Source: an uncultured Bacilli bacterium
GTDB lineage: Bacteria; Bacillota_I; Bacilli_A; RF39; UBA660
DNA: 32,000 bases
Assembly: GCA_947628345.1 (NCBI GenBank)
Contig: CANQZM010000006.1
Coordinates: 1-32,000 of the forward strand
Direction: 5' to 3'
Positions 4,733 to 30,252 of the stretch are shown piece by piece; the stretch's first letter is position 1, and every line of letters starts with the position of its first letter. Under the pieces are notes generated by a model that saw only the letters and a list, made by a program, of their open reading frames with translations, was not told the DNA's origin and did not search any database. The position numbers were made by a program, and so were the translations under genes.

Positions 4733-4768
4733 TGAAAAAAAAGTAATCTAAACAATTATAGATTACTT
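4733..4768 (-). terminator. rho-independent terminator closing the long minus-strand operon
   Basis: On the minus strand, the 10-bp stem AAGTAATCTA / TAGATTACTT (4759-4768 with 4741-4750) flanks an 8-nt loop and is followed by TTTTTT. It overlaps the stop codon of the 436-aa gene. Confidence 0.6.
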
Positions 4769-6077
4769 ATCTAATTATATATGGATTTTTTTGAGTACCA
4801 TTTCCTTTTTCAATCATCGTATCAGTACCAACTCTAATAATTAGTTTTATACGTTTAACATTATTAGCATAGTATTTATTAATATAACCATTAGAATTAA
4901 CTGCATATACTCTAGCTGAATTTTCAGCTGTTCCATTAGCTAACCAAAAATTACCACTATTAGCTAAAAAATTATAATTTTGACAACTAGGATCAACGGT
5001 AGTTTTACAATTTGAATCCAAGCTAGCATTAAGATAATCATAAACAGGAAGTAGAGCTATTTTAGTTTCTATGACCTCAGAACATTCAGTACTACCATTA
5101 CGACTAGTATCAGTTTCACTTCTGTTACCAACACATGATTTAAATTTAACTAATTTAGACTTTATTTCCTTTGAAAATGAAAATTGTTCAACACTATAAG
5201 ATGTATATTTATCCTCTGAATCATCTCCTAATTTATTATTGTAGATTTGATCAATAAATTCACTTATAGTACTATTTTGGTATGTATTAATTCCAGAATT
5301 ATCTTCAGTTAAACTATTATATCTTTCATCCCAAGTAAAAGAATTTTTAGAAACATCATCAAGAACTAAAGTAACTTCATCAGCAGAACTAACTTTTAAA
5401 ATTCTCCACATAGCATCTGAATTTTTAAATTTTACATAATTATTAACTTCTTTTCCTCGATATACATAACCATCATTTAATTTATAAAGACCATATCCTT
5501 CAGTAACAATATTTTTAGAATCAGTTACTTTTTTATATAATTCAGTAGTTTTATATAAATCACCACAATTTAAATATGCTGTATAACTATAGTTTTTAGA
5601 ATCAATCTTTTGAACTATAACTTCTCCCGTACAACTATCATTTTTAACATATTCATTTAAAGGTTTCATATATTTAGATTCAACTAAAACAGTATCAGTA
5701 ATTTTTACTTTCTTAGCTACTTGTGAAGGTAGATTAGACTTGTTATCAGCAAAATATGTTTGAGCAGCTTCTTTCATAATATTTTCAACATCTGCATAAG
5801 AATAATCTTTTTTAGATATTAAAGAAGATAGGAAAACTATTAACAAAATTATTATTATTATCAATATAATTAATCCTGTCGTTTTAACTAGTCTATTTCT
5901 AAATTGGGCTTTAGCTAAATTTTCATTATGTTTTATTTCTTCTTCTAAATTTTCACTATTATCTTCTAAATCTTGCTCCTCATCAGTTTCTTCATTAGCC
6001 AATTTTTCTTCTGATTTTTTAATACTTTCTTCTAAATCTTTATACTTATTATTATTTGGTCCAACTTTTTTATCCAT
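4767..6077 (-). CDS. N-terminally anchored surface protein, paralog of 26894-28678 (acidic cytoplasmic head, one TM, Cys-containing ectodomain, C-terminal GNGTQKNPYIIR)
   Basis: 436 aa, RBS AAGAGG. After the TM helix it shares a module with the 594-aa protein (...LP...C...Y.YL.CG.LYK). It also shares the block NNYV.F....WRILKV and a terminal G-x-G-x-x-x-x-P-Y-I-I motif. Confidence 0.7.
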   Translation of the reverse strand: MDKKVGPNNNKYKDLEESIKKSEEKLANEETDEEQDLEDNSENLEEEIKHNENLAKAQFRNRLVKTTGLIILIIIIILLIVFLSSLISKKDYSYADVENIMKEAAQTYFADNKSNLPSQVAKKVKITDTVLVESKYMKPLNEYVKNDSCTGEVIVQKIDSKNYSYTAYLNCGDLYKTTELYKKVTDSKNIVTEGYGLYKLNDGYVYRGKEVNNYVKFKNSDAMWRILKVSSADEVTLVLDDVSKNSFTWDERYNSLTEDNSGINTYQNSTISEFIDQIYNNKLGDDSEDKYTSYSVEQFSFSKEIKSKLVKFKSCVGNRSETDTSRNGSTECSEVIETKIALLPVYDYLNASLDSNCKTTVDPSCQNYNFLANSGNFWLANGTAENSARVYAVNSNGYINKYYANNVKRIKLIIRVGTDTMIEKGNGTQKNPYIIR

Positions 6078-6100
6078 ATAAATACCTCTTTCTACTTTTA

Positions 6101-8251
6101 TTAATTATCAAAGAAATCATCAAAAAATTCATCATCATCGTCATCATCTTCTAAATTAAGATTTTGAACAACTACATCATCCTTATGAATAATTTCTGAT
6201 TCTTTATCACCAATAATCTCTAATTTAGATTCTTCTTTCTTCTTATCATCTAACTCTTTATTTCGTTTTTCTTCTTCTTCTATCTCAGCAATTTTAGCAT
6301 CGATTTTTTTAATTAAATCATCCATATCAAAATTATTAGGAGCTGGTGATTTATCATCCTGTAGACTAGCCATAGGTGGTCTTGAATCCATTTGGGCAAA
6401 GGGATTAAAACCTTGAGACATAAATGGATTGTTAGGATTAGGTATTCTCATATCAGCATTATCCATATTCATACCAAATGGATTAGGTGGTAATGGATTA
6501 ACACCACCTTCTACTTCATCATTAGCATTCATCATTTCTAATAACTTTTTCTTCTTTTCTGATTTTACAAACTCTTTAATATTAAAGGTATGTACTTGTT
6601 GTTTTTGTCTATGAGGATATTTAGCTTGTGGATATTTCTCTCCCCAATCAATTTTAAAATCAGGGGTCATTTTAGTTTTAAATGGCTGTTTTCTAAGACG
6701 CATAATAACAACTTCAAATTGTTTCATTCTTTGTAAATCGGAAACTGTAATTAATGGGGTTGAAGCTGTTTTATCGTCTTTTTTACTTTTTTCTTCACCA
6801 CACATTTTAGATATTTCCTCTAAAGCTGCCAATTCAGTACTAATTAAATAAATGATATTTCCACAGTTTCCTCTAATTGTTTCGGCATCTTCTTTACCAT
6901 ATACTTTATTTAACTGAGCATAGTTTTGAATAATCATTGTAAATCTAATTTGACGAGAACGTGCTGCCGTAATCATAGTGGTAACATCTTTTAAAGGGGG
7001 CATATTAGCAAACTCATCTAACAAGAAATTAGTTCTGATTGGCAATTTACCTCCACACTTTTGAGCTACATCAATTAACGTTTCATAAATTTGTTTTAAT
7101 AAAATTGTTACTAAAGAATGATAAGTTTTCTTTTCATCTTGAATAACAATAAATACTGCCGTTTTTCTTTTTCCGATGGATGCTAAATCAATATCACTAT
7201 AAGATAACATCTCACTTAAATTTTCACGTGAGGCAAATAATTTTACTTTTTGTTTAAATACTGATAAAATTGAACCTTTAGTATCAGTTGGAGCTGTAAT
7301 GGTGGCAAAAGCATTAATTGCAGCTGCGCTAGATGGATCTTTAATTCCAAAATATTCCTTAATATAAGTAGAACCACCAAATTTATCTTCACCAACTGTA
7401 CTCATTAAATTAATACTATTGATATTAATTTCCTGTTCTTTAGCATCTTCAAATAAACCTAAAGCAAGTCCTGAAAAATAATCAGCAGAAGTCTTTTCCC
7501 AAAATGGGTCAGCATTGGTATTAGATTCATCATATAAAATATTTAGAGCTAAATCGTCTAATAATTCGATTGCTTTATCTTGTTTACCACTTTTATAAAC
7601 TTGATAAGGTAAAGACATAGGATTCCAAGCATTACCATGTTGAGGATCACGGAAATTAAGTAATAATATTTGATAACCCTTAGCTCTTAACATTTCTGCA
7701 GAAGATTCATAAATTTCACCTTTAGGGTCAGTAATAATCATACTTTCCCCTTTTTTAGCTAAAAACTTAACTGTAGGTTTAATAATAGTTTCAGTCTTTC
7801 CACTACCAGTAGCACCAATTACTAATGTATGATACTCACTATTATCTACCCAAGCTTCATTATCTTTAAGAATAAGGGGAACACCTGCGACAGTTGATTT
7901 TTTTTGAAGAGGGGTTATATAGGAAAGCTCTTCTTTCATCTCTTTTTCTTTAGACCAACGACTATATCCTTTATTTTTTTTCTCAGTACTAAAACCTACT
8001 CCTTTTTCCATATCAAAAAATCTCGAACTAACACTAGCAATTAATCCCAACAATGATAAAAGGTAAAAAATTAAGGTAGCTGTTATATATTGAGTTGAAA
8101 AGGCTGGTAAAGGATTTAAACCTGATAAATGACCATTTTCAGCTAACGTAGCTAAATTCACAACTCCAATTGAAATGACATATAACAAAAAAATCGCAAA
8201 TAACACAAATATAGCAACATCTTCTGAATCAGCAGTAAATTTAAGTTTCAT
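6101..8251 (-). CDS. type IV coupling protein, VirD4/TraG family
   Basis: 716 aa. N-terminal TM helices, Walker A VIGATGSGKTE, Walker B-like NFLLDEFANMP, then the conserved ARSRQIRFTMIIQNYAQLNKVYG block. A long low-complexity C-terminal tail follows. Confidence 0.9.
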   Translation of the reverse strand: MKLKFTADSEDVAIFVLFAIFLLYVISIGVVNLATLAENGHLSGLNPLPAFSTQYITATLIFYLLSLLGLIASVSSRFFDMEKGVGFSTEKKNKGYSRWSKEKEMKEELSYITPLQKKSTVAGVPLILKDNEAWVDNSEYHTLVIGATGSGKTETIIKPTVKFLAKKGESMIITDPKGEIYESSAEMLRAKGYQILLLNFRDPQHGNAWNPMSLPYQVYKSGKQDKAIELLDDLALNILYDESNTNADPFWEKTSADYFSGLALGLFEDAKEQEININSINLMSTVGEDKFGGSTYIKEYFGIKDPSSAAAINAFATITAPTDTKGSILSVFKQKVKLFASRENLSEMLSYSDIDLASIGKRKTAVFIVIQDEKKTYHSLVTILLKQIYETLIDVAQKCGGKLPIRTNFLLDEFANMPPLKDVTTMITAARSRQIRFTMIIQNYAQLNKVYGKEDAETIRGNCGNIIYLISTELAALEEISKMCGEEKSKKDDKTASTPLITVSDLQRMKQFEVVIMRLRKQPFKTKMTPDFKIDWGEKYPQAKYPHRQKQQVHTFNIKEFVKSEKKKKLLEMMNANDEVEGGVNPLPPNPFGMNMDNADMRIPNPNNPFMSQGFNPFAQMDSRPPMASLQDDKSPAPNNFDMDDLIKKIDAKIAEIEEEEKRNKELDDKKKEESKLEIIGDKESEIIHKDDVVVQNLNLEDDDDDDEFFDDFFDN

Positions 8252-8292: not shown

Positions 8293-9075
8293 CTAGTTAG
8301 AAACAAGTAATTTAAACATTCCGTCTTTAAATTTATACATTCTATGTCTAATTCCATTATTACTATAATATCCACAACTTAAAATAATTTCATATTGATT
8401 ATCTTCATCAATATCTAAAATGCTATTAATATAGGGTTTACAGCCACTATAAGAGTCTTGAGCATCTTTTTCAATATTTTTATATAAGTAAATAATTTTT
8501 TTATTCTTAATCATGAATACAAAACTAAAATAAGTAGAGCCAACATCTTCTAAAGCAAACTTATTACTTATTGTATAAATTTCTTCTTTTTTTTGATCAT
8601 TATCAATATCTACATAAATAACTGATTGACTAGTTAATATTGAATCTTGTTTAATATCGTTGTCTTTTAACACTTTATTTACATAATCTTTATTACTAAT
8701 ATCATGAGTACTAAATTGTACTACCTTATATTTTATATCACCTTTTAAGGCTAATAAATTACCATTATAATTTACTGGTGAGTTATTTTCTTCAAACAAA
8801 TAAGTTTTATCATCATTATATAAATAATAATTACCAAAATAAACATTATCAACATAAGTATAATATTTTTTCCAATTATATTTATCAATATGGTCAAAAG
8901 AAATATTACTCCATTTGCCACCTTCTTCTTTAAAAATAGCATTATCACCAACTATAATTGTATTAGAGTTAGTAACTTTTTTTATTAAATCTATTCCATA
9001 ATAACAGAAGAAGAAAATAGACAATCCAATTAACAAAACTATTATTATAAAAATTATTTTATTTGTTTTTTTCAT
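8293..9075 (-). CDS. hypothetical N-anchored extracytoplasmic protein (its position fits a VirB8/TcpC-like scaffold, but this is unproven)
   Basis: 260 aa, RBS AAGGAG, one N-terminal TM helix. It has two D-x-D-x-D-like motifs (DIDNDQKKEE, DIDEDNQYE) reminiscent of FG-GAP-type repeats. Confidence 0.35.
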   Translation of the reverse strand: MKKTNKIIFIIIVLLIGLSIFFFCYYGIDLIKKVTNSNTIIVGDNAIFKEEGGKWSNISFDHIDKYNWKKYYTYVDNVYFGNYYLYNDDKTYLFEENNSPVNYNGNLLALKGDIKYKVVQFSTHDISNKDYVNKVLKDNDIKQDSILTSQSVIYVDIDNDQKKEEIYTISNKFALEDVGSTYFSFVFMIKNKKIIYLYKNIEKDAQDSYSGCKPYINSILDIDEDNQYEIILSCGYYSNNGIRHRMYKFKDGMFKLLVSN

Positions 9076-9092: not shown

Positions 9093-11036
9093 TTAAACTT
9101 TAAAGTATGCTAGACGACTTGTATTTTTCCAATTATATTGACTCCACATATTAGTAGAAGTACTTCCAGGATCAAACATATTTATTGTCTCACCTGTAAT
9201 AGAATCTATGGCTACCCAGTGTTGTCCTGTATTACCTTTTACTTCTGCGACTACATAGTAACCAGCATTTAATAAAGATTGTATTGTTTGTAATTTATCC
9301 TTTCTCGATTGGTTACTTACGTCAATCCTATTTTGATATTTAAAATCAGGAGCTACAGTAGTAACAACATTCCACTGTAGATTACCTCTATTATCAAATC
9401 CTCCATTTTTTGATAATGCTTCAACAAATGTTCCTGGATTAAAGTCGCCTACTACATTAGCACTAACACCAGATTTAGCAATTAACATTGAAATAGAAGT
9501 AACTAGACATCCAGCAGTTTCAATAGTAGCATTACTATTACCTAATCTAATATTAGACCATGGTGCATTGTACTGTTTCCAAGAAGTATAATCACCAGTT
9601 GATGTTGATCCTCCTGTACAACTCGCAGTATAAATTGATTTATTAGATCCATATGTTTTTAATAATATTTGTTTATAGTCCAGTAAAAATCCTAATTCCC
9701 TCCAGGCTTTCTGACTACCTGCTGCATTTGTTCCTTCAGAATCATAATTAGTTCCTACAATATAACCAGTATTATTAGTAACCAATAGTTGTCCTGCGGT
9801 TTCTGCTACCCATTGTCTTGTTTTTGCATTTTGTGGTAAAGCATCTTTATAAGTTACCGTATTATTTAGACCCGAATAAACATCTAGACGCTCATTATCT
9901 CTACTTCCGTGTTTTGAACAACCTTGCTCTGGATTACAAAAAACTTGATCGGCAACGCAATTTCTAACTTGTAAAATCCACTGTCCATTTTCATTTTCTA
10001 ATTTGACACCATTAGCTCTATTACCACCTCGAATAGCTCTATCTAAAATAAAGCTTCTTGCTGCTACTGCTTGAGTCTTAGCTTCAGCTTCATTCATACC
10101 TCCACCTACTTCAGCATATACAACTCCTAAAATGTAAGTTTCAAAATCAATTAGAGATTCATCTTCAATTGGAACATTATCAGTACCATCACAAAAACTT
10201 GAATGCATTAATCTAACTTTTATATCCGATACTTGTTGATTAAATTTAACACTAGTTTGACCATTGGTTGCTCCTTTAATATCATAAGTACAAATACCAC
10301 CTGTACTAAAAGCAGAATTCGTAATATCTTTTTCATATTTTGTACCAGCAGCATATTCTTTATCAGGATTTCCAACATCACCATTACTATTATCAGCATC
10401 TTCTTTATCAACAGATCCAATACTACCTACAAGACCAAAAAATATAAGTATAAGGAATAATATAACTCCAGCACCAATATATTTAAACTTATCTTTTCCT
10501 GGTAAAAATCCTGTTCCATAAGCATCTCCAGAGTAGCTTACTTCAGTATCTTTTTGTTCTTCTGTTGAATTATTATCTTCTGTATTACTATTATCCAAAG
10601 AAGAAGGTTTACCTAAACCTTCTTTATCATTTCCAGTATTATTCCCTTCTTTTGGAACACTTTCGGCGGCATCGGCGGCATCAACTGCACCATTTGCAGC
10701 TTGTGCTGCTTGCATAGACATAACTTTATTAGCCGCATCTAAAATTTTAGCATCATCTGCTTTTTTGGCTACTTTTCCAAAGGCACCACCAGTAGCTTTG
10801 TTAACTAAATTGGCAGCCTTACCTTCAACTTTATCTATAGCTTTACCAACACCTGGAACCTTTTTAGCCGTTTCAAAAGCAGCCCCACCAGTTCCACCTG
10901 TAAAGGCATTAATAGCCCCTTTAGCTGCAGTATCAACAGCTTTTTTACTGCTTTGTTGCTCTGCCTGTTTCTTATCATTACGAGCTGCTTGATACTTGTT
11001 TTGATCTTCTTGATTATTTTGGCTATTTTTTGGCAT
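9093..11036 (-). CDS. T4SS-associated bifunctional cell-wall hydrolase (SpoIID-like domain plus papain-like C39-like/CHAP-like Cys peptidase)
   Basis: The SpoIID-like block is ETYILGVVYAEVGGGMNEAEAKTQAVAARSF. The C-terminal candidate Cys/His pair is TAGCLVTSISML ... GQHWVAID. The N-terminal ~190 aa are Ala/Gly/Lys-rich, followed by one TM helix. I prefer the ATG at 11036 (GGTGA RBS) over the GTG at 11045. Confidence 0.7.
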   Translation of the reverse strand: MPKNSQNNQEDQNKYQAARNDKKQAEQQSSKKAVDTAAKGAINAFTGGTGGAAFETAKKVPGVGKAIDKVEGKAANLVNKATGGAFGKVAKKADDAKILDAANKVMSMQAAQAANGAVDAADAAESVPKEGNNTGNDKEGLGKPSSLDNSNTEDNNSTEEQKDTEVSYSGDAYGTGFLPGKDKFKYIGAGVILFLILIFFGLVGSIGSVDKEDADNSNGDVGNPDKEYAAGTKYEKDITNSAFSTGGICTYDIKGATNGQTSVKFNQQVSDIKVRLMHSSFCDGTDNVPIEDESLIDFETYILGVVYAEVGGGMNEAEAKTQAVAARSFILDRAIRGGNRANGVKLENENGQWILQVRNCVADQVFCNPEQGCSKHGSRDNERLDVYSGLNNTVTYKDALPQNAKTRQWVAETAGQLLVTNNTGYIVGTNYDSEGTNAAGSQKAWRELGFLLDYKQILLKTYGSNKSIYTASCTGGSTSTGDYTSWKQYNAPWSNIRLGNSNATIETAGCLVTSISMLIAKSGVSANVVGDFNPGTFVEALSKNGGFDNRGNLQWNVVTTVAPDFKYQNRIDVSNQSRKDKLQTIQSLLNAGYYVVAEVKGNTGQHWVAIDSITGETINMFDPGSTSTNMWSQYNWKNTSRLAYFKV

Positions 11037-11062
11037 CAGTATCACCTACTTCTAACTTACTT

Positions 11063-12853
11063 TTATAGTCCTCCTCCACTACCAAACAAATCTAATTCTT
11101 GCTTAGTTACGGAAATATTAATTCTCATTCTTCTATTACCACAAACAAACAGTGCTTCACCTTGTGAATATCTTTTTATGCTTTCTTTTTCACTCTCATT
11201 CAAATCTATTAATAGACTTAAATCTTCAACAGCCTGTTTCTTTAGTCCCATTACTAAATAGTAAGAGGCATTATCAAAAATAGCTTTACCTTGAGTAATA
11301 ACATTAGGTGCTGAAAAATCACTAGGTTGTTGAGTAATAATAATAGTTCCTGTGTTATACTTACGAGCACGTCTTTGTACCTGAGCCAAGAAATCAGCTC
11401 CCAAAGTATTTTGCTCTCCCAACAAGACATGTGCCTCATCAACCATTAAAACTGTATCTACCCTTGGATCTAGGCACAAACTCCAAGCATATTTTAGAAC
11501 ATTAAAGAATAAAGCATTTTTAACATTAGATTCACTATTCATTAACTCTTTAATATTAAATACCATAAAATCACTATTTCCATTAATTGTCGTATGGCCA
11601 TCAAAGTAGAACTTTAATTCTTTAATGATTGGTCTAATTTTCAACTCTAAACGTTCCATTATATCACGTTCTTGAGTTTGTTCTGTCATTGACATAAGAC
11701 GACCCTTGATAGTTGCATAAACATCAGTGAAGGTTGGATAATCTTCCGATGTAAATCCAGAAAAATCAGTGTTAAAATCAATTCCAAAACGTCTATATGT
11801 ATCTTGAACAATTTCACTAAACATAGTTAAAACGTCTTCTTGAATGGAAGGATCATAATACTTCATAAATGCTTTTAAAAATTGCAATGTTCTAGTTAAA
11901 ACTGTATAACCAAGACCTTGTTTTATTTCATCATCATCAGCATCAATTACAACTTCCAATGGATTAATTAACCCAAATTCGCCACCTTTACCAATATCAA
12001 TTTGATCTCCTCCAAATGCTTTCGTAATTTCAGCATACTCATTTTCAGGATCAATGGCAACAATTTGACAACGATTTCTAATATGGGTTCTAAGCATTAG
12101 TTTAGCTGCGGTTGATTTTCCGGAACCAGAGGTACCTAAAATTATCATATTGGCGTTGTTTCTATTATGTTCTTTTCTTATTTTATATAAAAATTGATTA
12201 AATAGGATTACACCACCTGAAAAATCAACTCCTAATAAAGTAGCTAATCCTGGATCTTTAATACTATCAAAAATAAATGGATACATAGCCGCAATGGTTA
12301 TAGATGGAATTGGCGTTCCAATACGTTCTTCAATATCTTGAGATGGAAAAATTGGTAATATTGATTTAAGAACTTTTTCTTGTTCAAAACGAAGTGACAC
12401 TGCCCTTAATTCCATTGCATCTAAATAATTTTTAACATTTACTTTTTTTAGTTCCAAATCTTCTTTTGTATTTGCGGTAATCATAATATGTAATTGGAAA
12501 TCAAAAATACGGGCTTGACTAGCAGCTAACATGGAAATAAAATACTCTAAGCTCTCATAATCTTGTCTAATTCGCTCACGTGATGTTTGATCTCTTTCTT
12601 TGCTGTATCTTTCTTTTAAATCAGCAACTTGTTTATTTAGCATTTTTGATATCATTGAAAAATCAACAGGAATATGTTTAACAACAACTTTAATTCCTGA
12701 CATATTAGTTAAAGTTGATAAATATCCTGGTTGAATATATCTTGGGTAAGAAACTACTGTCAAAATAGTTGCATATTTATCACTAATAAAGAAATCACTT
12801 GCATTAAAGCTTAATCCCTTAGGGGCTAATTGTCCTCTTAAACTTACACTCAT
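11063..12853 (-). CDS. VirB4-family ATPase, ATPase (C-terminal) portion
   Basis: 596 aa. Walker A ILGTSGSGKST, Walker B VLMVDEAHVLL, and IIITQQPSDF. Its ATG overlaps the TGA of the upstream ORF (ATGA). Confidence 0.9.
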   Translation of the reverse strand: MSVSLRGQLAPKGLSFNASDFFISDKYATILTVVSYPRYIQPGYLSTLTNMSGIKVVVKHIPVDFSMISKMLNKQVADLKERYSKERDQTSRERIRQDYESLEYFISMLAASQARIFDFQLHIMITANTKEDLELKKVNVKNYLDAMELRAVSLRFEQEKVLKSILPIFPSQDIEERIGTPIPSITIAAMYPFIFDSIKDPGLATLLGVDFSGGVILFNQFLYKIRKEHNRNNANMIILGTSGSGKSTAAKLMLRTHIRNRCQIVAIDPENEYAEITKAFGGDQIDIGKGGEFGLINPLEVVIDADDDEIKQGLGYTVLTRTLQFLKAFMKYYDPSIQEDVLTMFSEIVQDTYRRFGIDFNTDFSGFTSEDYPTFTDVYATIKGRLMSMTEQTQERDIMERLELKIRPIIKELKFYFDGHTTINGNSDFMVFNIKELMNSESNVKNALFFNVLKYAWSLCLDPRVDTVLMVDEAHVLLGEQNTLGADFLAQVQRRARKYNTGTIIITQQPSDFSAPNVITQGKAIFDNASYYLVMGLKKQAVEDLSLLIDLNESEKESIKRYSQGEALFVCGNRRMRINISVTKQELDLFGSGGGL

Positions 12854-13404: not shown

Positions 13405-13696
13405 TTCTCACACACCAACCTTTCCATTCATAATTTCTCTGATTTGAGAAAAATTCAAATAGTTCTAAAATTACATTTAATATATTATGATAATAAGGTA
13501 CTGGCACAACTAAGAAACCCGTGACTAGTGCCGGCAGTAATATAATAACAGTAACTAAAGTTGATGACATAGGTAAAATTATCATAAATAGTACTGTAAT
13601 TAAAACTCCTGTACCAAATAAAATTAAATCAAGTGGTCTAAACATACCAAATATTAATTGTCCCCTCTTTGTATTAGCGGGAATTAAATAATTCAT
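13334..13696 (-). CDS. VirB3-like / PrgI-TcpE-like small membrane protein
   Basis: 120 aa, RBS GGGGTGA. Two hydrophobic helices directly upstream of VirB4. The N-terminus NTKRGQLIFGMFRPLDLILFG is typical of this class. Confidence 0.6.
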   Translation of the reverse strand: MNYLIPANTKRGQLIFGMFRPLDLILFGTGVLITVLFMIILPMSSTLVTVIILLPALVTGFLVVPVPYYHNILNVILELFEFFSNQRNYEWKGWCVRIGEHKRKREKIDRRLATSKSNSK

Positions 13697-13751
13697 CTAA
13701 CATCACCCCTATTTATTAATCATCCTTAACATATCTTCAATACTCATTAGT

Positions 13752-15803: not shown

Positions 15804-15832
15804 GTTTTCACCCCACTTCTTTTTTTATTTTT

Positions 15833-16270: not shown

Positions 16271-16309
16271 AACTAAGCCACATCCTCATTTACATAATGT
16301 ATCATCATA

Positions 16310-22409: not shown

Positions 22410-22853
22410 CTAGTTAGCTCTTATATCAGAAACAAGTTGTTCTGCTAATACATCTTTTTTGTTATTACTTTCGATAATCATATCCAATCTAGTAGTAATA
22501 TCTATATCTGATTCATAGAAAGTTTTACTAGTAGCACTTTTTACTTCTACACTAACTTTAGGTGGAATTTCGTTGACATCGTAGAAACTAATTTGATAGT
22601 ATCTACGATCATCAACGCTTCGTGCAAATCTTTTTAGAAAACTTTCTGCAAATTTTTCTTTATCCATTCTAATTACTGATTGCTCTCTATAATAACTTAA
22701 ATCAACTGCATCTTCTAAAGCTGCTTCTGTTGTCTCTTTTAATAGATAATAATCTAGTTCTTGACCCGTGGTATAATTTTGAATAACATTTATGACACCT
22801 AAAGCCATTAGGCTTAATAATATAATTCCTACTGTTAACATTGCTTTATTCAT
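22410..22853 (-). CDS. hypothetical N-anchored small protein
   Basis: 147 aa, RBS GGTGA. One N-terminal TM helix and no recognisable motif. It could be a VirB8-like or pseudopilin-like accessory protein. Confidence 0.3.
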   Translation of the reverse strand: MNKAMLTVGIILLSLMALGVINVIQNYTTGQELDYYLLKETTEAALEDAVDLSYYREQSVIRMDKEKFAESFLKRFARSVDDRRYYQISFYDVNEIPPKVSVEVKSATSKTFYESDIDITTRLDMIIESNNKKDVLAEQLVSDIRAN

Positions 22854-22864
22854 ATATTCATCAC

Positions 22865-25800
22865 CTACTTAATATTATTCTTTCCACGATTATTTCTAAA
22901 TTTATCAGTGGTAATCGTTCCTATACTTGCAAAATTATCCTGACTCATGGACCTATCATACATATTATAAGCATATAATCCAGGAATAATCTCTTTATCG
23001 ACTTCAAATTTACCACCGAATTCTAAGCTAAGTGCTTTTAAGTCATTAATATCATCGGTATCTAAAATAATTCTGAAATCTAAATTTTCATCAGTATAGG
23101 TTCCTGATTCTCCCTTACCATAACAGTCTGGACAATCAGCAGAGTTTGGTATTATAGATCTTGAGTAATCAACTGGATCAACATCATAGCCACTAGCTTT
23201 TAATTTTGTAGCTACTACCTCATCATTAGGTGCAGATAATTTAGCAGAACTTCCCCAGTTATAACCACGTAATCGGTTATTAGGGAACATATTATCAAGT
23301 GAAACAACTCTTATATCGTAGTTCAAAACCGTAGAAATATCATTTCCATCTTGTTTATCAGTATCTGAAGGGCAATCTTCTCTATTACCTTCATCCCCAC
23401 GATAGCAATTTGGACCGTCTGTTGTTTTATTATAAACAGAATAGAAACAACTTAAATTTATATGCCAATTATATTTACCAAATCCCTTAGTATTTGTTCC
23501 TAAATTAGCATCTATTGTAGCACCAGTACTACTAGGAGTAAAATCAGTTGGATACTTATCGGCAGCATACTTATCAACAACTGCCCAATCCCACCATTTT
23601 TTATTAACTTCTGCAGCATCATAAGTAGTACAAACAAATTGACTTTTATTTCTATAACCATCTTTTTTACATTCATAAGATAACTCACCAGTTTTTAAAT
23701 TAATTAAAGTACCAGGGAAAGTTATAGTTGTTTGATAATCAATTGGATTACCACCTAAATCTTTAATATTATTATCATCATAACATTGTCCAAAAATACC
23801 TTCTTCAGATGGATCATTTTCAAATGCAGGTATGAACATTGAAGGTTTAGGTCCATCTTGGTTAGTAATGTCACACATATTAGAATCATCTGAACCTGTA
23901 TTTTTATGTAAATCTGTATGTCCTGTGGAACTTTGACTATTACCATTTTGACTATTTATCTTAATATCAAAATTAGTAGTTGTTTCTGTTGTATCACAAG
24001 CACTTGAAGTTTTACATTTTTGTAAAGCATCATTTATATTTTTAAGACTAGCTTTAACTCCTTTAGTATATTGTTTACTAGTTAATGCATCATCTTTATC
24101 ACAACCATAGAATGAACAACTCATAGTACATTGCCAAGAATTAATTTTTGATCTTTGAGTCTTTATTCCATTATCACTTATATAATATTTTCTATTCTCA
24201 CGTCCATTAGCTACAAAGAATCCTTTAATTAAATCTTTAGTGGTTTCAACATCACGAACATAAAATGGTGCAGCACGAGCTATTTGCATACCAATATCTT
24301 CTACTTCGTTAGCTTTATCTTTTGCTTTTGTAACGCCATCATCCATTTTCCAAGTACATTCACCATCCTCAGTACAATTGAAATGACCCATTGGGTATAA
24401 AGTTTTTGCTTTATAATAAAATTCTGCACATTTTTCTATGTCTGCATCTTCCACAAATCCCCCATTTCGATATATATCACTATTTTCACATATATTATTC
24501 TTATAATAATTTTCATAATTTTTTTCAACTAAATCCTTTTTTGCTTTTACTGTTAACTTAACAATACTACTATTACTATTATCATATATAACAGGTGTTG
24601 TTATAGTGTTCTGAGTTTTTTTAGTACTTGCTGTTTTAGATGTATCATATTTATCTTTATATACTTTGTCATAACATTTATTAATACATTTTTGACTATA
24701 TTGTCCATTATCACAGGAATTTACACAATTATCAAAATCTTGTGAAGGCCCTGCTTGGGTTTTTTGTTTATTGTCTTCACATGCAGGCATTGCAGAACAC
24801 ATATCTCGCTTATTCAAAACATCATTTAATTTATTAAGAATTTGTTCAGTATTATAGTCAACACCACACTCTACTTTACTTTTTACAGTTACTCGATATT
24901 GAAAACATAATCCTGCTTTTACAGTCTGAGGAGGACTATATACTACTGTCAAATGTTCATAACAAGTAGAGTCACAAACCTTTACTGTATCAAGCTTTTC
25001 AACTTGATCTGTATCTTCATTCCATCCTACTAATTTAGCAGACTGTGAACTGGTTTCAGCATATAAATAACTTTTTTGTCCAGAACCAGCTTTATATTTT
25101 CCAGTATGATTAACTGTGTCGTATTCCATATTAGCACTATCATATTCACAATATAATTTTTGATCTCTTACATTAACACTATTAGCAGTTTTTCCTTCTG
25201 TTTTAGAAGAATCTGTAGAATTATAAATATAATAATCATCAACTTGATTTTTTAATGCATTCATTGAAGCTGTAACCGCAGCAACACTAGTTCCTGTAGA
25301 ACCATTTCTAATACGATAGTACATTTCCAATAAAGCATCAGACACTTTTTCAATTTCGTCATCATCTAAATTAAATGGAACTTCTTTATCTTCACAATAA
25401 TGTAAAATTCTACTATAATAATCAGAAATCCATGTATCTTTAACAGCTTGAGATTCATTTTTTACTGAAAACTGGGGATTTGATGAATGTATACCCTCAT
25501 ATGCATTGCTACATTTTTCTCCTTTATGCTCTCTATTTTTATAATTAGTTAAAATAGTTCCACTTTCAGCACCAGGATTTTGAATAAATGCACTTGCGGC
25601 TGTACCTGTTAATTCTATATCATAAGCAGTACTATTTACTCTAACTATATCACCTGCTTCACATTTAACTTTCTTATTATTTTTATTGATGAGCTCATAA
25701 TTCTGATCCTGTAAAACTATAACAATAATTTCTTTTCCTGGATCTAACTCATAAAAATAATCATCGTCCTTTAATATTTCATTCTTTACTCTAGCACCAG

Positions 25801-26122
25801 AATTTTTAATTTCCTCTTTAGTCAAATCATCAGCATTTTCCAAAGAACCGTATGGACCTTCAAATATAATTAATCTATATTTATAGGTATCCGAGTTTTT
25901 AACGGTAATTTTAACTTCTCTTTTTTCAACGCTATTCCAATACTTTCCACTTCTATATCCAGCAGAACGCTGATATGTTCCTGGATCAATTGTTATACCT
26001 ATTTTATCTCGACATGTTTTTCTTGCAGATGCTTTGGTTACTACAGCATATGCACTTTTAGGCAGAAACACAATAGTACAAATAATTATAATTAATAAAA
26101 TTTTACCCCTCAATTTATTCAT
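22865..26122 (-). CDS. giant secreted Cys-rich protein (~1085 aa), function unknown, candidate adhesin or tip component
   Basis: Signal peptide ...FLPKSAYA-VV. I counted about 33 Cys in the mature part, often in close pairs (CDSTC, CSAMPAC, CVNSC, CINKC, CTEDGEC, CTMSCSFYGC, CPDC). I place the start at the ATG at 26122, 9 nt after AAGGAG, rather than at 26131. Confidence 0.75.
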   Translation of the reverse strand: MNKLRGKILLIIIICTIVFLPKSAYAVVTKASARKTCRDKIGITIDPGTYQRSAGYRSGKYWNSVEKREVKITVKNSDTYKYRLIIFEGPYGSLENADDLTKEEIKNSGARVKNEILKDDDYFYELDPGKEIIVIVLQDQNYELINKNNKKVKCEAGDIVRVNSTAYDIELTGTAASAFIQNPGAESGTILTNYKNREHKGEKCSNAYEGIHSSNPQFSVKNESQAVKDTWISDYYSRILHYCEDKEVPFNLDDDEIEKVSDALLEMYYRIRNGSTGTSVAAVTASMNALKNQVDDYYIYNSTDSSKTEGKTANSVNVRDQKLYCEYDSANMEYDTVNHTGKYKAGSGQKSYLYAETSSQSAKLVGWNEDTDQVEKLDTVKVCDSTCYEHLTVVYSPPQTVKAGLCFQYRVTVKSKVECGVDYNTEQILNKLNDVLNKRDMCSAMPACEDNKQKTQAGPSQDFDNCVNSCDNGQYSQKCINKCYDKVYKDKYDTSKTASTKKTQNTITTPVIYDNSNSSIVKLTVKAKKDLVEKNYENYYKNNICENSDIYRNGGFVEDADIEKCAEFYYKAKTLYPMGHFNCTEDGECTWKMDDGVTKAKDKANEVEDIGMQIARAAPFYVRDVETTKDLIKGFFVANGRENRKYYISDNGIKTQRSKINSWQCTMSCSFYGCDKDDALTSKQYTKGVKASLKNINDALQKCKTSSACDTTETTTNFDIKINSQNGNSQSSTGHTDLHKNTGSDDSNMCDITNQDGPKPSMFIPAFENDPSEEGIFGQCYDDNNIKDLGGNPIDYQTTITFPGTLINLKTGELSYECKKDGYRNKSQFVCTTYDAAEVNKKWWDWAVVDKYAADKYPTDFTPSSTGATIDANLGTNTKGFGKYNWHINLSCFYSVYNKTTDGPNCYRGDEGNREDCPSDTDKQDGNDISTVLNYDIRVVSLDNMFPNNRLRGYNWGSSAKLSAPNDEVVATKLKASGYDVDPVDYSRSIIPNSADCPDCYGKGESGTYTDENLDFRIILDTDDINDLKALSLEFGGKFEVDKEIIPGLYAYNMYDRSMSQDNFASIGTITTDKFRNNRGKNNIK

Positions 26123-26876
26123 CTTTATCATCTCCTTCCAATATTTTCTTTATTTCTTTATAATTACTTTTTTCTATTACTTTATAATTTTTAACTAATT
26201 CGTTTTTTCTAACTAATCTTGCATCTACTACAAAGGAATAGTCAGCATTACCAAAGAATCTTGTACAAGTAACTAAAGTAATCAATTTATCACTATCATT
26301 AACATCTACTTTAAAATCAAAGTAACTTTTTTCTTTAGTATATTCAATATAATCTTCTACATCATTTTGATCAATATCTTCTAATTCTAGATCTTCTTCT
26401 TCCTGAAGAGAAACACCATATATTTTAAATAAATAGTTTTTATTATTTATTGTATACTGAATATATTTATTTTCTTTTACAAAATCATAATATATATATC
26501 CCATTAATTGTTCAAATCTAGCATGTTCTTTATTTCCAATTAGTGGTTTACTAGAAACATTTCTCATATTATGAGATAAAATAACTACTCTATTAACAAG
26601 TTTTTTATGATTAGTAAATGTCCATCCTAAATCATAACTAGGATCACTAATATCATCAACATCATAGTAATACATAATTGGAATATCAATATTAGTTCCT
26701 TGAACTCTTAGCCATCCTAAGGGATCTGCATCATTTTTATTAGAGGTAAAGGTTTTTATATTATTTAGTCGATTTTGAACTTTATAATATGGCTTTAACA
26801 TAATAACCGAAGTTATACATAGTATTACTACCAAGAGTAATATTATTTTTTGTTTTTTATTTTTTTTTCCCTTCAT
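26115..26876 (-). CDS. class B-like sortase (N-terminal TM anchor)
   Basis: 253 aa. GWLRVQGTNIDIPIMY, His motif LSHNM, Cys motif LITLVTCT and Arg in VVDARLV. Its stop overlaps the start of the giant protein gene by 8 nt. Confidence 0.8.
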   Translation of the reverse strand: MKGKKNKKQKIILLLVVILCITSVIMLKPYYKVQNRLNNIKTFTSNKNDADPLGWLRVQGTNIDIPIMYYYDVDDISDPSYDLGWTFTNHKKLVNRVVILSHNMRNVSSKPLIGNKEHARFEQLMGYIYYDFVKENKYIQYTINNKNYLFKIYGVSLQEEEDLELEDIDQNDVEDYIEYTKEKSYFDFKVDVNDSDKLITLVTCTRFFGNADYSFVVDARLVRKNELVKNYKVIEKSNYKEIKKILEGDDKDE

Positions 26877-26893: not shown

Positions 26894-28678
26894 TTAGCTA
26901 GATATTATATATGGTGATATTTCAAGACCAGAACCACTTTTTACTTCAACAGAGGATTTTAGATAGCCAACTATTCTAAGCCCATTAATTTCGTTATAAT
27001 CATAATCTTCACAAACTACTTGTCCACTACTATTATAACAATACTTTTTAGCTTTGCTGGAATAGTCTTTATACCAGTAATCATTAGAACTTATTGAAGA
27101 ACTAAATAAATCATACATACTTGGAATAGTAACTTTAACATTATAGCTATTTTTCTTACTATCAGCATTATAATTAATATTATTAGTATAATCTAAAACT
27201 TCTAATTTCTTTTTTTCAAAGATTTCTGTTTTTACATATGAGGTAGCGTTATTGGCAATATAATAACCAATATTATTTTTCTTATTTGGATTATATTCCA
27301 AATTACTATCTTCACCAAATTTAACATAATAATTAGTTCCTGAATTTTCTATAATATCATCCATAATAATTTGAGTAGTACCGTCATCTTCTTTTCCAAT
27401 TACTCGCCATCTATATCCTGAATAACTAATATAGTCTCCCACTCTAGTTTCAGAAACCTTAGTACCTGCCTTTGCTGAATATTTGTTACCTTGTAAAATA
27501 TAAGGATTATAAGCAGAACCATTTCCTTTAATAACTTTAGTATATTTTTTGATATTTACAGCTGGACTTATTACTACATTTTCATTAGTTTTGTTTGTCA
27601 TATATTGTTGATATAAATTTGTCCAAACTGTTTTTGAATCTTTTTTATTAGCCAATAATGAATTATTGTTAATATTATAAGAATTATCTTCTCCTTTAGA
27701 GTTATTAATATCAGCGATAGATAAAATTCCTACGTTAGCTTTTTTACCATAGTGATTACATTTTGTATAATTAGTACCATCACTAACTTCTTCATCACAC
27801 CATTTACTCTTAACTATCAAATTTTTAGCACTATCACTAAATTTATTATAGAAATAATCATTAAGCCATTCTTCTGCATGACTATAATCAATTGCTGAAA
27901 TATTAGAATCAGTAACTAATTTAACAGTATCATCATCATTAATTCCTACAATTTTAAATGTTATTCCATCTAACTGAACATAATTATTATCTTGATAGCC
28001 TTTATAAACTTTAGTACCATTAGTATCTTTTTCTACAATATGATTTAAGGTTTCTATTACTTTAACAGTTCTAACTTTTTCTGTTTTATTATTAAAACTG
28101 TCTTTTATTGTATAAGTAATTTGATATGTGCCTATTTTATTATTATTAACATTATTAACAACTTCTACTTTACTCACATCCATAGAGCCATCAGTATTGT
28201 CTTTAACACTAGCAATTCCAGGATCATCAAACTTATCACCTTTATTAATAGTTATAGTTTCTTCTCCTTTTAATTTTATAACTGGACCTTGATGATCAAC
28301 TTTTGATTTTAAAATTCCACAATCTAAATATACATAATATTTACACTCGCCATTTTCTTGTCTTACTTTAACCCAAGAAGATTTAGTATCACAGACTTTA
28401 CCAGTATAAGGACTTCTGATATCATTTTCAATAAATTTTTTCTGATATAAAGTTGTCAAAGTTACTTCTTTAATTCTATTACCTGTAGGTAATTGTCCAC
28501 TATTAATTTCATAATATCTTTTGGTTGCATCTAAAACTACTTTCTCGTTTCTTTTAAAAGTTAATATTGGGCTTAATACTACAAACCATAGTATTAACAA
28601 AATAATAATGATAATAACTACAAGTTTAACTTTTGTTGCTTTATCCATTTTATCTTTTTTACTTTTCTTTTTTTCCAT
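26894..28678 (-). CDS. N-anchored surface protein with a bacterial Ig-like (DUF5011-like) domain and two repeat modules ending in G-x-G-x-x-x-x-P-Y-I
   Basis: 594 aa, RBS AAGGAG. The post-TM module ends YLDCGILKSK. The Ig-like block is GPVIKLKGEETITINKGDKFDDPGIASVKDNTDGS...GTYQITYTIKDSFNNKTEKVRTVKV. Two motifs are GNGSAYNPYILQG (internal) and GSGLEISPYIISS (C-terminus). Confidence 0.7.
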   Translation of the reverse strand: MEKKKSKKDKMDKATKVKLVVIIIIILLILWFVVLSPILTFKRNEKVVLDATKRYYEINSGQLPTGNRIKEVTLTTLYQKKFIENDIRSPYTGKVCDTKSSWVKVRQENGECKYYVYLDCGILKSKVDHQGPVIKLKGEETITINKGDKFDDPGIASVKDNTDGSMDVSKVEVVNNVNNNKIGTYQITYTIKDSFNNKTEKVRTVKVIETLNHIVEKDTNGTKVYKGYQDNNYVQLDGITFKIVGINDDDTVKLVTDSNISAIDYSHAEEWLNDYFYNKFSDSAKNLIVKSKWCDEEVSDGTNYTKCNHYGKKANVGILSIADINNSKGEDNSYNINNNSLLANKKDSKTVWTNLYQQYMTNKTNENVVISPAVNIKKYTKVIKGNGSAYNPYILQGNKYSAKAGTKVSETRVGDYISYSGYRWRVIGKEDDGTTQIIMDDIIENSGTNYYVKFGEDSNLEYNPNKKNNIGYYIANNATSYVKTEIFEKKKLEVLDYTNNINYNADSKKNSYNVKVTIPSMYDLFSSSISSNDYWYKDYSSKAKKYCYNSSGQVVCEDYDYNEINGLRIVGYLKSSVEVKSGSGLEISPYIISS

Positions 28679-28689
28679 ATTAAATCTCC

Positions 28690-30252
28690 TTATTTTATTT
28701 TATAACTATATTGTTGATTTCTAATAGTGTAAACTAATTCAATGCTTTTAGCATTCTCTAAACCTGAAGGTATTTTAAGATAAATGTAATTACCTAGATA
28801 ATCTATGTTACTAGCTGCATTTTCTACTGTTAACTCCCGTACTATGTTATCATTATCTATATATTTAATTTTACCATAATTAATTGAAAAGTCAATCAAT
28901 TCTTGCCCATCATAACTACCTGATGAAAAAGTAATAGCTAAAATCTTGTTATTGCCCGTTACTGCTAAAGATGAAGAAGAAATACTACAGTTATAATTAT
29001 TATTACAAATTTCAACATTATAAGAAACTTTATCAGTTATAGCAACAGATTCAAAAGTCATCTGTTCTTTAGTTCCATTTGGATAAGTAACTTCTAATTC
29101 TTCACCTATATTCTTAGCTTTATGTTTAACAATATCTGACATGTCTTTTAAATTCAATTTAATTTTGCGTAAATAAACTTTAGTAGCTGATTTATATTGT
29201 TGATAATATAAAACAAAATTATCCTTTTCCAAATTTTTATCGACTTTAAAAATCAATGCAAAGGTTCTCTCTTCTGAAGAATTAAAATCCCTATTTTTAT
29301 ATTCTTTTCCTATATCTGTAAAATATTTTGTATAAGTACTTCCTGAATAAGTTATATCATTTTTACCATTTACTAAATGAAAATTACTCATATCCATAGC
29401 TCGTTGGCTACTATTATTTTTTACTGTTAAATTTAAAACTACAAAACTACTATTTTCCTCTAAAACATTACCAGCTTTATCTAAATTAGTATAATAACTT
29501 TCATTTACAACTATCGAGTAACCATTAGCATTCAATACTTTGGTTTCTGAAATAGATTTATGATTTAATAAGTAATTAACTGATATTAAAACTATAACAA
29601 CAAATGAACCAACCAAAATGATATTTACAGTTTTTTTATGTTCTTCATAAAAATATCCTAACAGTCGTTTTATTTTTTTATATTGTCTTTTAAAAATATG
29701 TTTATCAAAATCAACATTAATTTCTACTTCTTCTCTATCAGCTTGATCTAATTCTAAAAATTCTTCATCATTACCGAAACTAAATCTATTTAAATCTAGT
29801 CCAATAATTCTAATTAAGAATATTAATAAACTTCCATACTGAGGTATTGTAATCATATTTAAAAAATCCCTAAAAGCTCTAGCTGTTGCAGTAGCACTTC
29901 CTCCCTCATATGAGGCAAAGTATTTTTGAACTGATACAAAAATCACAATTAAAACTATATATGTAATAACTGGAAAAACATATAAAACCCATGGTTTCTT
30001 TTTTCTTCTTAAAAGTAACAATAAAATTGCTGACAAAACTATTACTATAAGTGATGTTAAATAAAACAAAAAACTAGTATATTTAGTAATAGGTTCTAAA
30101 TAGGCATCATAACTAACATAAGTTATAAAATCTTTAACAAAACCTGTTAATTGTACAGTTTTATATAAAAGGAATATTCCTAATGCAAATAGGACAATAT
30201 GAATTTTGCGAAAGTTCTTTATTAAAAATGCATATGGTTTTCTAAAAATCAT
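28690..30252 (-). CDS. polytopic membrane protein with a C-terminal extracytoplasmic DUF4352-like beta domain; first gene of the block
   Basis: 520 aa, strong RBS GGAGGGG. There are about 5 TM helices in the first 230 aa. The following block SSFVVLNLTVKNNSSQRAMDMSNFHLVNG...ERTFALIFKVDK fits the DUF4352 pattern. Confidence 0.55.
   Translation of the reverse strand: MIFRKPYAFLIKNFRKIHIVLFALGIFLLYKTVQLTGFVKDFITYVSYDAYLEPITKYTSFLFYLTSLIVIVLSAILLLLLRRKKKPWVLYVFPVITYIVLIVIFVSVQKYFASYEGGSATATARAFRDFLNMITIPQYGSLLIFLIRIIGLDLNRFSFGNDEEFLELDQADREEVEINVDFDKHIFKRQYKKIKRLLGYFYEEHKKTVNIILVGSFVVIVLISVNYLLNHKSISETKVLNANGYSIVVNESYYTNLDKAGNVLEENSSFVVLNLTVKNNSSQRAMDMSNFHLVNGKNDITYSGSTYTKYFTDIGKEYKNRDFNSSEERTFALIFKVDKNLEKDNFVLYYQQYKSATKVYLRKIKLNLKDMSDIVKHKAKNIGEELEVTYPNGTKEQMTFESVAITDKVSYNVEICNNNYNCSISSSSLAVTGNNKILAITFSSGSYDGQELIDFSINYGKIKYIDNDNIVRELTVENAASNIDYLGNYIYLKIPSGLENAKSIELVYTIRNQQYSYKIK

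Follow-up and report, generated by a model that had tools for sequence, protein, structure and literature searches.

What can the envelope apparatus of a conjugation system be doing in a bacterial chromosome when the genes for DNA processing and element maintenance are not found beside it? This question is raised by a 32,000-nt stretch of DNA, called the window in the following (assembly GCA_947628345.1, contig CANQZM010000006.1, positions 1 to 32,000), from an uncultured Bacilli bacterium placed in GTDB under RF39; UBA660. According to the listing of open reading frames (ORFs), positions 4767-30252 of the window are filled by 22 ORFs that all lie on the minus strand, with spacings of -71 to +99 nt including one overlap of -1. 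This block of ~25 kb combines genes for a monoderm-type type IV secretion system (T4SS), a set of genes resembling those of Tad pili, and a set for a sortase and surface proteins. A preliminary description made from the sequence had proposed this combination, which matches to hidden Markov models (HMMs) bear out; it had also noted the tight spacing, which is confirmed, and had counted about 23 genes, one more than we find. It had further raised the possibility of a domesticated machine. We think it probable, with some reserve, that the block encodes a conjugation-type machine of the cell envelope, and that in a large clade of uncultured gut Bacilli with low G+C this machine has settled at a fixed place in the chromosome as a vertically inherited operon. 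This reading is favored because the position of the block is conserved, because the block co-diverges with the chromosome, and because its conservation is very strong. Common descent with the conjugation apparatus of Bacillus plasmids, namely BTB_78p and pLS20, is evident from homology of the encoded proteins, and the T4SS probably belongs to the monoderm pAW63/pLS20 type of the mating-pair formation class MPF-FATA.

Conservation of the locus and the search for mobility genes

In a scan based on VirB4 with one genome per species, relatives of this ATPase were found in at least 581 species genomes, which are metagenome-assembled genomes (MAGs), and close relatives of both VirB4 and the secretion ATPase of the Tad-like set are very numerous in gut metagenomes. 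The best 80 of the at least 581 loci were examined. Their copies of the C-terminal VirB4 part (VirB4C) show 82-94% identity, and nearly all of them are from MAGs that carry the labels Bacilli, Tenericutes, Mycoplasma sp. CAG:877, Ca. Faecimonas and Ca. Onthousia. Ca. Faecimonas corresponds to the GTDB genus CAG-877 of the order RF39, with 28% G+C and a genome of 1.4 Mb. The gene order from the CpaB-like gene to the gene of a 436-residue surface protein, which is the last gene of the block, is the same across the loci examined, and the surface module at the 5' end of the block is kept in the loci L007-L009, L094 and L095. Downstream of the block, the genes for rhodanese, DedA, RmuC, YuzI, DUF3603 and TrpRS are common to most of the 80 loci; a sub-lineage that includes a complete chromosome of 1.52 Mb has isochorismatase and NAPRTase genes as 3' neighbors, and its hydrolase set differs as well. 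The 5' flank, which was compared between the window and L007-L009, L094 (1-1331) and L095 (1-1567), varies by lineage. As the 5' neighbors vary and the 3' neighbors are mostly constant, the data point to rearrangement at one border only. In the window the 5' neighbors are M29 and M23 peptidase genes (30374-30970), whereas elsewhere genes for a U32 peptidase, a PedC-like protein and a SpoU methylase are found, and in L095 an ORF of 1065 codons.

Correlations of the identity to the window proved uninformative, and Mantel tests on pairwise distances were used in their place. When compared with the flanking RmuC, the proteins VirB4C, TadB-like, TadC-like and VirD4 gave correlations of r = 0.59-0.69 and the ATPase one of 0.48 (p = 0.001), and for RmuC and DedA, which both belong to the flank, r was 0.63 (p = 0.001), i.e., the flank-flank correlation equals that between block and flank. 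The mean pairwise distance is 0.13 for VirB4C, 0.20 for RmuC and 0.45 for DedA, and VirB4C is the most conserved protein in the whole region. The median identity to the window amounts to 85% in VirB4C and 83% in the ATPase, compared with 74% in TrpRS, whose copies are mostly cut by the ends of the loci; the extracellular proteins reach 37-57%. A conserved core with a fast-evolving surface is what one expects of a functional core machine and not of a recently moving element.

These data have to be weighed against the view that the block belongs to an ordinary integrative conjugative or mobilizable element, which would serve its own transfer and whose relaxase, integrase and oriT would lie outside the window. 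All closest characterized relatives are conjugative plasmids with a relaxase beside VirD4, VirD4 has been kept in the block, and the variable 5' flank as well as the extent of the relaxase search, which covered the window and the scanned flanks, would suit such an element. However, most of the 80 species share the same 3' neighbors, the block co-diverges with chromosomal genes, it occurs in at least 581 species, and the conservation of VirB4 exceeds that of RmuC and DedA in the flank. Moreover, relaxase and oriT as well as an integrase were found neither in the 32-kb window nor in the scanned flanks of related loci, and the window contains no match to a recombinase, a Rep/Par gene or an A24 prepilin peptidase; for the window the Pfam and NCBIfam searches agree in this with the preliminary description. 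No tRNA gene and no Rfam family was found in the window, no word of 13 nt or more that could represent an att repeat is common to both block borders, and the alternative flanks likewise show neither a tRNA gene nor an att repeat. An ordinary mobile element is, in our view, highly improbable. The reading as a vertically inherited operon is in turn weakened by several points. Besides the variable 5' flank and the scope of the search for mobility genes, these are the restriction of the 80 loci to the closest relatives, the assignment to RF39, for which documentation covers Ca. Faecimonas as the one named genus while the membership of the rest is an assumption, and the linkage of the block to those flank genes that served for the co-divergence test and that might in principle move along with it.

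Type IV secretion system genes

For the family assignment, Pfam and NCBIfam HMMs were compared with the 31 ORFs of the window using the curated cut-offs. VirD4, a two-ORF VirB4, T4SS_pilin, a SpoIID hydrolase, a T2SSE ATPase, DUF5411, a sortase and an Ig-like protein are clearly identified in this way. Ten proteins of the block are without any match in these collections, namely the TadB-like, TadC-like, Flp-like, 158-residue, 330-residue, VirB3-like, 260-residue, 1088-residue, 436-residue and 520-residue proteins. Of the calls made in the preliminary description, VirD4, the two-ORF VirB4, two VirB2-like proteins, the hydrolase, the sortase and the Ig-like protein are upheld by HMM matches or by paralogy. 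In each of the three ATPases of the block, intact Walker motifs can be read from the translations.

VirB4 is encoded by two ORFs, a C-terminal part of 596 residues (11063-12853), which matches the NCBIfam model VirB4_plasma with 361 bits and the CD1110 family with 177 bits, and an N-terminal part of 184 residues (VirB4N, 12850-13404), which matches positions 97-276 of VirB4_plasma (E = 1.7e-14) and the orthologues of which carry the TraC-like domain PF26593. VirB4C covers positions 295-893 of this model, which represents the VirB4 of Mycoplasma integrative and conjugative elements (ICEs). Both ORFs together cover 97-893; the scores fall under the equivalog cut-off of 590. The junction of the two ORFs is an overlap of -4 (ATGA), and this 4-nt overlap is found in the window and in four mapped loci. 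A two-ORF VirB4 with parts of about 185 and 596 residues is present in 81-84 related loci (at about 9400-11790 in L010-L089, 1277-3856 in L096 and 22518-25005 in L093). As the split occurs in all related loci, the gene is not a pseudogene, and as BTB_78p also has a two-ORF VirB4 with a homologous N-terminal part, the split appears to be ancestral to this T4SS lineage rather than the result of a frameshift.

The coupling protein VirD4 (6101-8251) belongs to the CD1115 family (NF045973, 307 bits at a cut-off of 250; PF02534, E = 5e-53). Its C-terminal tail is strongly acidic and ends in …EDDDDDDEFFDDFFDN. The putative channel protein of 683 residues (13752-15803) is VirB6/TrbL-like and extended; the preliminary call as VirB6 is backed by a match to TrbL_4 (PF19597) that remains just under the cut-off (26.6 vs 27), and further by a match to the Mycoplasma MMCAP2_0566 family (E = 7e-7) and an hhalign probability of 84% to pLS20 gene 49. 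Its C-terminal extension of ~290 residues is hydrophilic and charged, as is the case in the "extended VirB6" of pLS20. A small protein with two transmembrane (TM) segments (13334-13696) is a candidate VirB3/PrgI by position and topology; its gene occupies the slot that holds PrgI/DUF5592 in the plasmids, and hhalign relates it to PrgI of BTB_78p with E = 5e-4.

Two VirB2-like paralogues are encoded next to each other. The second one (145 residues, 15833-16270) has a signal peptide and two TM segments and matches the T4SS_pilin family (PF18895, 30.0 bits at a cut-off of 26.6), and the first one (112 residues with two TM segments, 16370-16708) is 38% identical to it (E = 8e-20). A TTG-initiated ORF of 56 codons lies between the pilin genes and overlaps one of them (16273-16443); it is probably spurious, because the gene calls of related contigs omit it.

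The cell-wall hydrolase (9093-11045), which is predicted to take the role of VirB1, consists of a SpoIID domain (PF08486, E = 5e-9) and a C-terminal C39-like region. The slot between VirB4 and VirD4 in which it is encoded is swapped among lineages: the L073 group (11769-16714) has M23 and NlpC/P60 hydrolases with three extra ORFs, and L029 (11808-14690) has GDSL, CHAP and phage-tail lysozyme genes there. The neighboring 260-residue extracytoplasmic protein (8293-9075) has an N-terminal anchor and is a candidate for VirB8 by position. It gave no match in a profile search against the PDB, and its hhalign alignment with pLS20 gene 53 is confined to the TM region. This gene is replaced together with the hydrolase, and other ORFs stand in its place in the L073 lineage.

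The Tad-like genes

The second set of genes is likely a Tad-like module, in which the defining features of the Tad family itself appear to be partly present. A protein with an N-terminal TM segment (22410-22853) is clearly assigned to DUF5411 (PF17424, E = 3.6e-49, 167 bits), a family that seems to be a marker of this Tad-like module. The protein encoded next (21589-22392) is CpaB/RcpC-like with a SAF domain. The match by which its preliminary naming as CpaB can be judged is present and under the cut-off (RcpC, E = 4e-5, 23.9 vs 28.8; TIGR03177, E = 4e-8), and the relation to the SAF proteins of BTB_78p and of the Priestia plasmid locus L091 is close (phmmer E = 2e-26 to 2e-27; hhalign 99.5-99.7%). 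The hexameric secretion ATPase (20249-21553; PF00437, 93 bits; Walker A GETGSGKTE) is, judged by these matches, a clear member of the T2SSE superfamily, which includes VirB11, CpaF (TadA) and FlaI. Its subfamily is ambiguous, as the NCBIfam models for VirB11 (110 bits) and for the conjugation-type TadA (100 bits) both score far under their cut-offs. The C-terminal tail of about 90 codons is of low complexity and rich in Q, A, P and V; its length varies, and relatives range from about 404 to 693 residues in total with a core that is 71-90% identical.

Two candidate platform proteins follow. The TadB-like one (297 residues, four TM segments, 19340-20233) belongs to a small family with 229 clusters among 1.8 billion representatives and has been assigned by remote homology. 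One remote relative, P0387, matches T2SSF with E = 2.3e-5 and a score of 24.8 at a cut-off of 25.2, and is annotated on its Priestia plasmid as a protein of the F family of type II secretion systems (T2SS); within the alignment of the family, 2 of 31 members show T2SSF at E up to 0.1. The family is related to pLS20 gene 38 and to a protein of L091 with an hhalign probability of 97%, where the E-value for gene 38 was 0.13 with shallow alignments confined to the clade and 1.2e-11 after remote relatives had been added. Searches for homologues of the TadB-like and of the 330-residue protein gave close relatives only and no new annotation. The TadC-like candidate (261 residues, three TM segments, 18555-19340) matches proteins of L091 (phmmer E = 1.3e-17) and BTB_78p (1.5e-9) that are in both cases encoded right after the TadB-like gene, and it is weakly similar to the TadB-like family (hhalign E = 0.004).

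The next two genes encode small proteins that are pilin-like by their sequences, yet non-canonical. The Flp-like candidate of about 50 residues (18314-18472) has an N-terminus, MKAATGELNLTVIT, that is invariant in 30 species and is followed by a hydrophobic helix, with a Gly ahead of the helix (MKAATG-ELNLTVIT). The 158-residue protein (17791-18267), possibly a minor pilin, has a conserved MRDAxGG before its hydrophobic helix. The 330-residue cytoplasmic protein (16785-17777) has a predicted two-domain architecture like that of TadZ. In its AlphaFold2 (AF2) model (pLDDT 81), a receiver- or flavodoxin-like domain precedes a ParA/MinD-like SIMIBI P-loop fold with a degenerate Walker A motif, and the Foldseek matches are ParA (3ea0, E = 3e-4), HypB, MeaB, FleN, FlhG and BcsQ. 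No match was found at the level of sequence in Pfam, NCBIfam or PDB profiles, and no similarity to pLS20 gene 47 or to the ParA-like proteins of L091 and BTB_78p. Of the features of a Tad pilus, TadZ/CpaE and CpaB/RcpC are therewith present, TadZ at the level of the fold only. The labels TadB, TadC, Flp and TadZ, all of them already used in the preliminary description, stand below an HMM-level identification: for TadB, TadC and TadZ, remote homology or the fold agrees with the label, and direct HMM matches were obtained for none of the four.

It could be argued that there is no Tad filament at all, with the ATPase being a VirB11 and the two membrane proteins, like the CpaB-like and the small proteins, being inner-membrane and wall parts specific to the T4SS, which is how the literature on the plasmids implicitly regards them. 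VirB11 is indeed the best NCBIfam score of the ATPase, and the homologue is named VirB11 in the pLS20 paper and in a review covering pAW63. Several observations on the window proteins fit that view and count against the assembly of a filament. The identity of TadB and TadC hangs on the borderline T2SSF score of one remote relative, and the window proteins themselves have no T2SSF match in Pfam. Modeled with AF2, the TadB-like protein consists of helices throughout (pLDDT 78), and Foldseek found nothing in the PDB for this model with an E-value below 1, which leaves the T2SSF fold unsupported; PDB profile searches with the TadB-like and TadC-like families gave nothing meaningful. The 50-residue protein has no EY at +5/+6 and no canonical G/xxxxEY site, and among the 31 ORFs scanned there is no prepilin peptidase (TadV/CpaA, A24). 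On the other hand, homologous sets stand alone without a T4SS and have the classical Tad order of CpaB, ParA-like protein, ATPase, two membrane proteins and small ORFs, the mentioned remote relative does match T2SSF and is annotated accordingly, the 330-residue protein is modeled with a TadZ-like two-domain fold, and in two small proteins a short leader with charged residues is combined with a conserved Gly and a hydrophobic helix. We think that a T4SS without any filament module is unlikely, while it deserves more consideration than the other alternatives.

Sortase and surface proteins

The sortase (26115-26876) is membrane anchored and class-B-like (PF04203, 29.8 bits at a cut-off of 26.6; TIGR03064, E = 4e-12, under the cut-off), and the TLVTC motif as well as the His and Arg motifs can be read in the translation. 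A substrate with a C-terminal sorting signal is not visible in the block, a TM segment at the C-terminus is seen in none of the block proteins, and motif-like strings are internal only, which counts against the proposed machine.

The genes around it encode large surface proteins. A protein of 594 residues (26894-28678) has an N-terminal anchor and an Ig-like domain (PF16403, E = 3.4e-18). The 1088-residue protein (22865-26131) contains 34 Cys residues and an N-terminal TM segment, is secreted or anchored and may be an adhesin. It evolves fast, with orthologues in L007-L009 being 27-45% identical, and its position is taken by large surface proteins in L091 and BTB_78p, to which no similarity is detectable. 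The 436-residue protein (4767-6077) is N-terminally anchored, and its position at the 3' end is kept in 65 loci. The preliminary description had called it the paralogous surface protein, and a weak relation to the 594-residue protein does exist (E = 7e-4 across the C-terminal ~110 residues). Both proteins end in G-x-G-x(3,4)-(N/S)-P-Y-I-I at the C-terminus, the 594-residue protein has an additional internal copy (GNGSAYNPYIL), and in both a short stretch after the TM helix resembles the "Y..N.G.LP" region of pseudopilins.

The first gene of the block (28690-30252) encodes a polytopic membrane protein of 520 residues with about six predicted TM segments and an extracellular C-terminal part. Its earlier description as DUF4352-like finds a weak match in the orthologues only, and none in the copy of the window; the gene is kept at this position in L007-L009, L094 and L095. 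The protein was also considered as a prepilin peptidase and rejected, as it is without a GxGD-type motif.

The arrangement of these genes bears on a further alternative, according to which two uncoupled machines are merely adjacent, of which one would be an adhesive pilus of Tad-like type that goes with sortase-linked adhesins, and the other a T4SS of its own. Tad-only loci do exist, as do T4SS-only elements including the Mycoplasma ICE. However, the two sets remain next to each other with tight spacing in the examined loci of different species and, independently, in two plasmid families. In the block, the TadZ-like gene lies between the pilin-like and the VirB2-like genes, and surface proteins are encoded at either end. 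Two independent machines appear quite unlikely to us, and we continue with the reading of one vertically inherited, combined apparatus.

Borders and neighboring genes

The block ends with a hairpin that resembles an intrinsic terminator (4733-4768, minus strand), with a 10-bp A+T-rich stem followed by T8 and a folding energy of -10 kcal/mol (z = -1.95). Near 30297-30325 a weaker stem with a T-run can be read in the sequence (z = -0.87). Both had been noted as terminators in the preliminary description and are seen again, with modest fold z-scores; a consensus terminator scan misses them because it requires three G-C pairs and the hairpins are A+T-rich. The G+C content of the window is very low (0.23-0.36). 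Housekeeping genes flank the block on both sides, as had been stated before. Downstream these are rhodanese, DedA/VTT, RmuC, YuzI, DUF3603 and TrpRS, and upstream an M23 peptidase followed by an M29 aminopeptidase. The aminopeptidase gene (30970-32000) continues beyond the end of the window, and as the full protein has 403 residues in L004, the listed ORF of 307 codons begins at an internal ATG.

Proposed mechanism and significance

The apparatus is probably of use to its own cell, when this cell comes into contact with others. In such a machine, contact to a partner cell would be mediated by the three large surface proteins together with the sortase, and the hydrolase would open the wall. Spanning the wall, a short filament of the Flp type or a pseudopilus could then be put together by the ATPase and the TadB/TadC-like platform, and a conduit may be formed by VirB6 with the VirB2-like and VirB3-like proteins. 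VirB4 and VirD4 would power the transfer of a substrate other than a self-transmissible element, and candidates for this substrate are either proteins or chromosomal DNA, the latter transferred with no canonical relaxase involved, as happens in the chromosomal transfer that depends on Mycoplasma ICEs. Whatever in this sequence of steps goes beyond homology is inferred.

RF39 genomes have about 1.4-1.5 Mb, of which the 25-kb operon makes up roughly 1.7%. An operon that is kept above the conservation of its neighboring genes is likely central to the biology of the organism, and its surface proteins, pilins and ATPases provide a handle on the question whether RF39 bacteria depend on cell contact. 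For the plasmids, the comparison implies a likely Tad-like module in what counts as "VirB11 plus unknown genes" on pLS20 and BTB_78p, most clearly in BTB_78p, and it suggests that some Gram-positive conjugation systems cross the wall with a type-IV-filament-like device.

Comparison with known systems

A description of the RF39 locus was not found in open-access papers or bioRxiv preprints on T4SS, pili or conjugation in RF39/RFN20. The composition as such is already known from plasmids, as judged from the encoded proteins: a T4SS combined with a Tad-like set occurs on BTB_78p and in part on pLS20. The preliminary statement that no system of this composition has been described is thereby overturned, since BTB_78p carries homologues of both modules side by side, and the premise behind it, that monoderm conjugation systems are without a platform set, was too strong, because homologues of ATPase and platform proteins are encoded on BTB_78p and, partly, on pLS20.

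BTB_78p of B. thuringiensis Bt407, which we take to be pAW63/pXO2-like, encodes in this order a MobP3 relaxase, VirD4, a 126-residue protein with two TM segments, TrbL, PrgI, a 227-residue ORF product, VirB4 and an NlpC/P60 protein, followed by an SLH protein, proteins of 851 and 142 residues, a SAF protein, a ParA-like ATPase, a T2SSE ATPase and two membrane proteins. On the T4SS side, phmmer relates VirB4C (E = 3.9e-83) and VirB4N (1.8e-18, to the ORF before VirB4) to this plasmid, and on the Tad-like side CpaB (2.2e-26), the ATPase (2.4e-35), the TadB-like (1.7e-13) and the TadC-like protein (1.5e-9). The split VirB4, the VirD4 of the CD1115 family, a wall hydrolase and the adjoining Tad-like set are shared, and PrgI and TrbL would correspond to the candidate VirB3 and the VirB6-like protein of the block. 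In contrast to the block, BTB_78p has the MobP3 relaxase beside VirD4 as well as recombinases and partition genes, the order of the modules is reversed with the T4SS first, there is no sortase and no recognizable T4SS_pilin, and the ParA-like protein precedes the ATPase and has no sequence similarity to the 330-residue protein. The pilin paralogues are not similar to the 126-residue ORF product encoded upstream of TrbL.

The best plasmid matches of the ATPase are found in the pLS20 family. Identities to pLS20 are 35% for the ATPase ("tadA"/gene 37), 27% for VirD4 and 23% for VirB4; gene 38 is related to the TadB-like family (hhalign 97.4%), gene 39 weakly to the TadC-like one, and gene 36 weakly matches DUF5411. 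In a set that resembles the block, one operon comprises genes 36-39 and small TM proteins, further VirD4, an extended VirB6, a 2-TM protein and a 192-residue ORF followed by VirB4, VirB8 and VirB1, with an adhesin gene upstream; the product of the 192-residue ORF, which stands in the position of VirB4N, has no detectable similarity to it. pLS20 differs in that the relaxase MobL, encoded further along, and auxiliary proteins are present, and in that CpaB and a TadZ-like protein were not found. The authors of the pLS20 study report no VirB2 homologue, identify gene 37 as VirB11 and list genes 38-41 as "unknown", and a review describes pAW63 with VirD4, VirB4 and VirB11, where pili go unmentioned.

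Related Tad-like sets occur without T4SS genes. The Priestia plasmid locus L091 encodes a large surface protein, DUF5411 (weak match), a SAF/CpaB protein, a ParA-like protein, a T2SSE ATPase, two membrane proteins and small ORFs, and its CpaB, TadB-like and TadC-like proteins match the window families with hhalign values of 97-99.7%. In Clostridia, DUF5411 adjoins CpaF/PilC in operons (Miller et al. 2022, PMC9523054). These operons and L091 share with the block DUF5411, a CpaF-family ATPase, one or more platform proteins and a large surface protein, and differ from it in having no T4SS genes. TadB-like relatives are carried by 366 plasmids of the Bacillus group, and from these matches the Tad-like module appears widespread on plasmids of the B. 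cereus group too. Among the carriers are B. anthracis plasmids of pXO1 size (H47-H52, 181-184 kb), with about 29% identity to P0387, and many B. cereus-group plasmids that MOB-suite types as non-mobilizable.

With the Mycoplasma ICEs, the block shares the best NCBIfam VirB4 model (Mbov_0397 VirB4, 361 bits) and the match of VirB6 to the MMCAP2_0566 family, whereas their VirB4 is a single polypeptide. These ICEs are not known to carry a canonical relaxase, are mobile via a DDE transposase and support chromosomal transfer, and to our knowledge they contain no Tad-like set.

The closest parallel for a change of function comes from Patescibacteria, where a chromosomal, MPF-FATA-derived T4SS mostly lacks a relaxase and a co-option to a non-conjugative role was inferred (Quinonero-Coronel et al. 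2025, PMC12102498). Chromosomal location, wide occurrence in a lineage with reduced genomes, VirB2-like/T4SS_pilin genes and monoderm MPF-FATA ancestry are common to both; the phylum is a different one, and PMC12102498 mentions no linked Tad-like set or sortase. By analogy, it is conceivable, and we put this forward tentatively, that the hybrid of the RF39 bacteria represents a second, independent domestication in which the filament module was kept, and that it could be a core, vertically inherited organelle on which these gut bacteria with small genomes depend for a contact-dependent life, in which chromosomal DNA is exchanged or acquired independently of a relaxase, or molecules are delivered to or extracted from partner bacteria, the latter having been proposed for the T4SS of episymbiotic Patescibacteria. 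What is new here is the setting, a largely conserved chromosomal site with no DNA-processing or maintenance genes nearby, and, compared with the plasmids, the equipment of the block with its own sortase, three large surface proteins and two clear T4SS_pilin paralogues.

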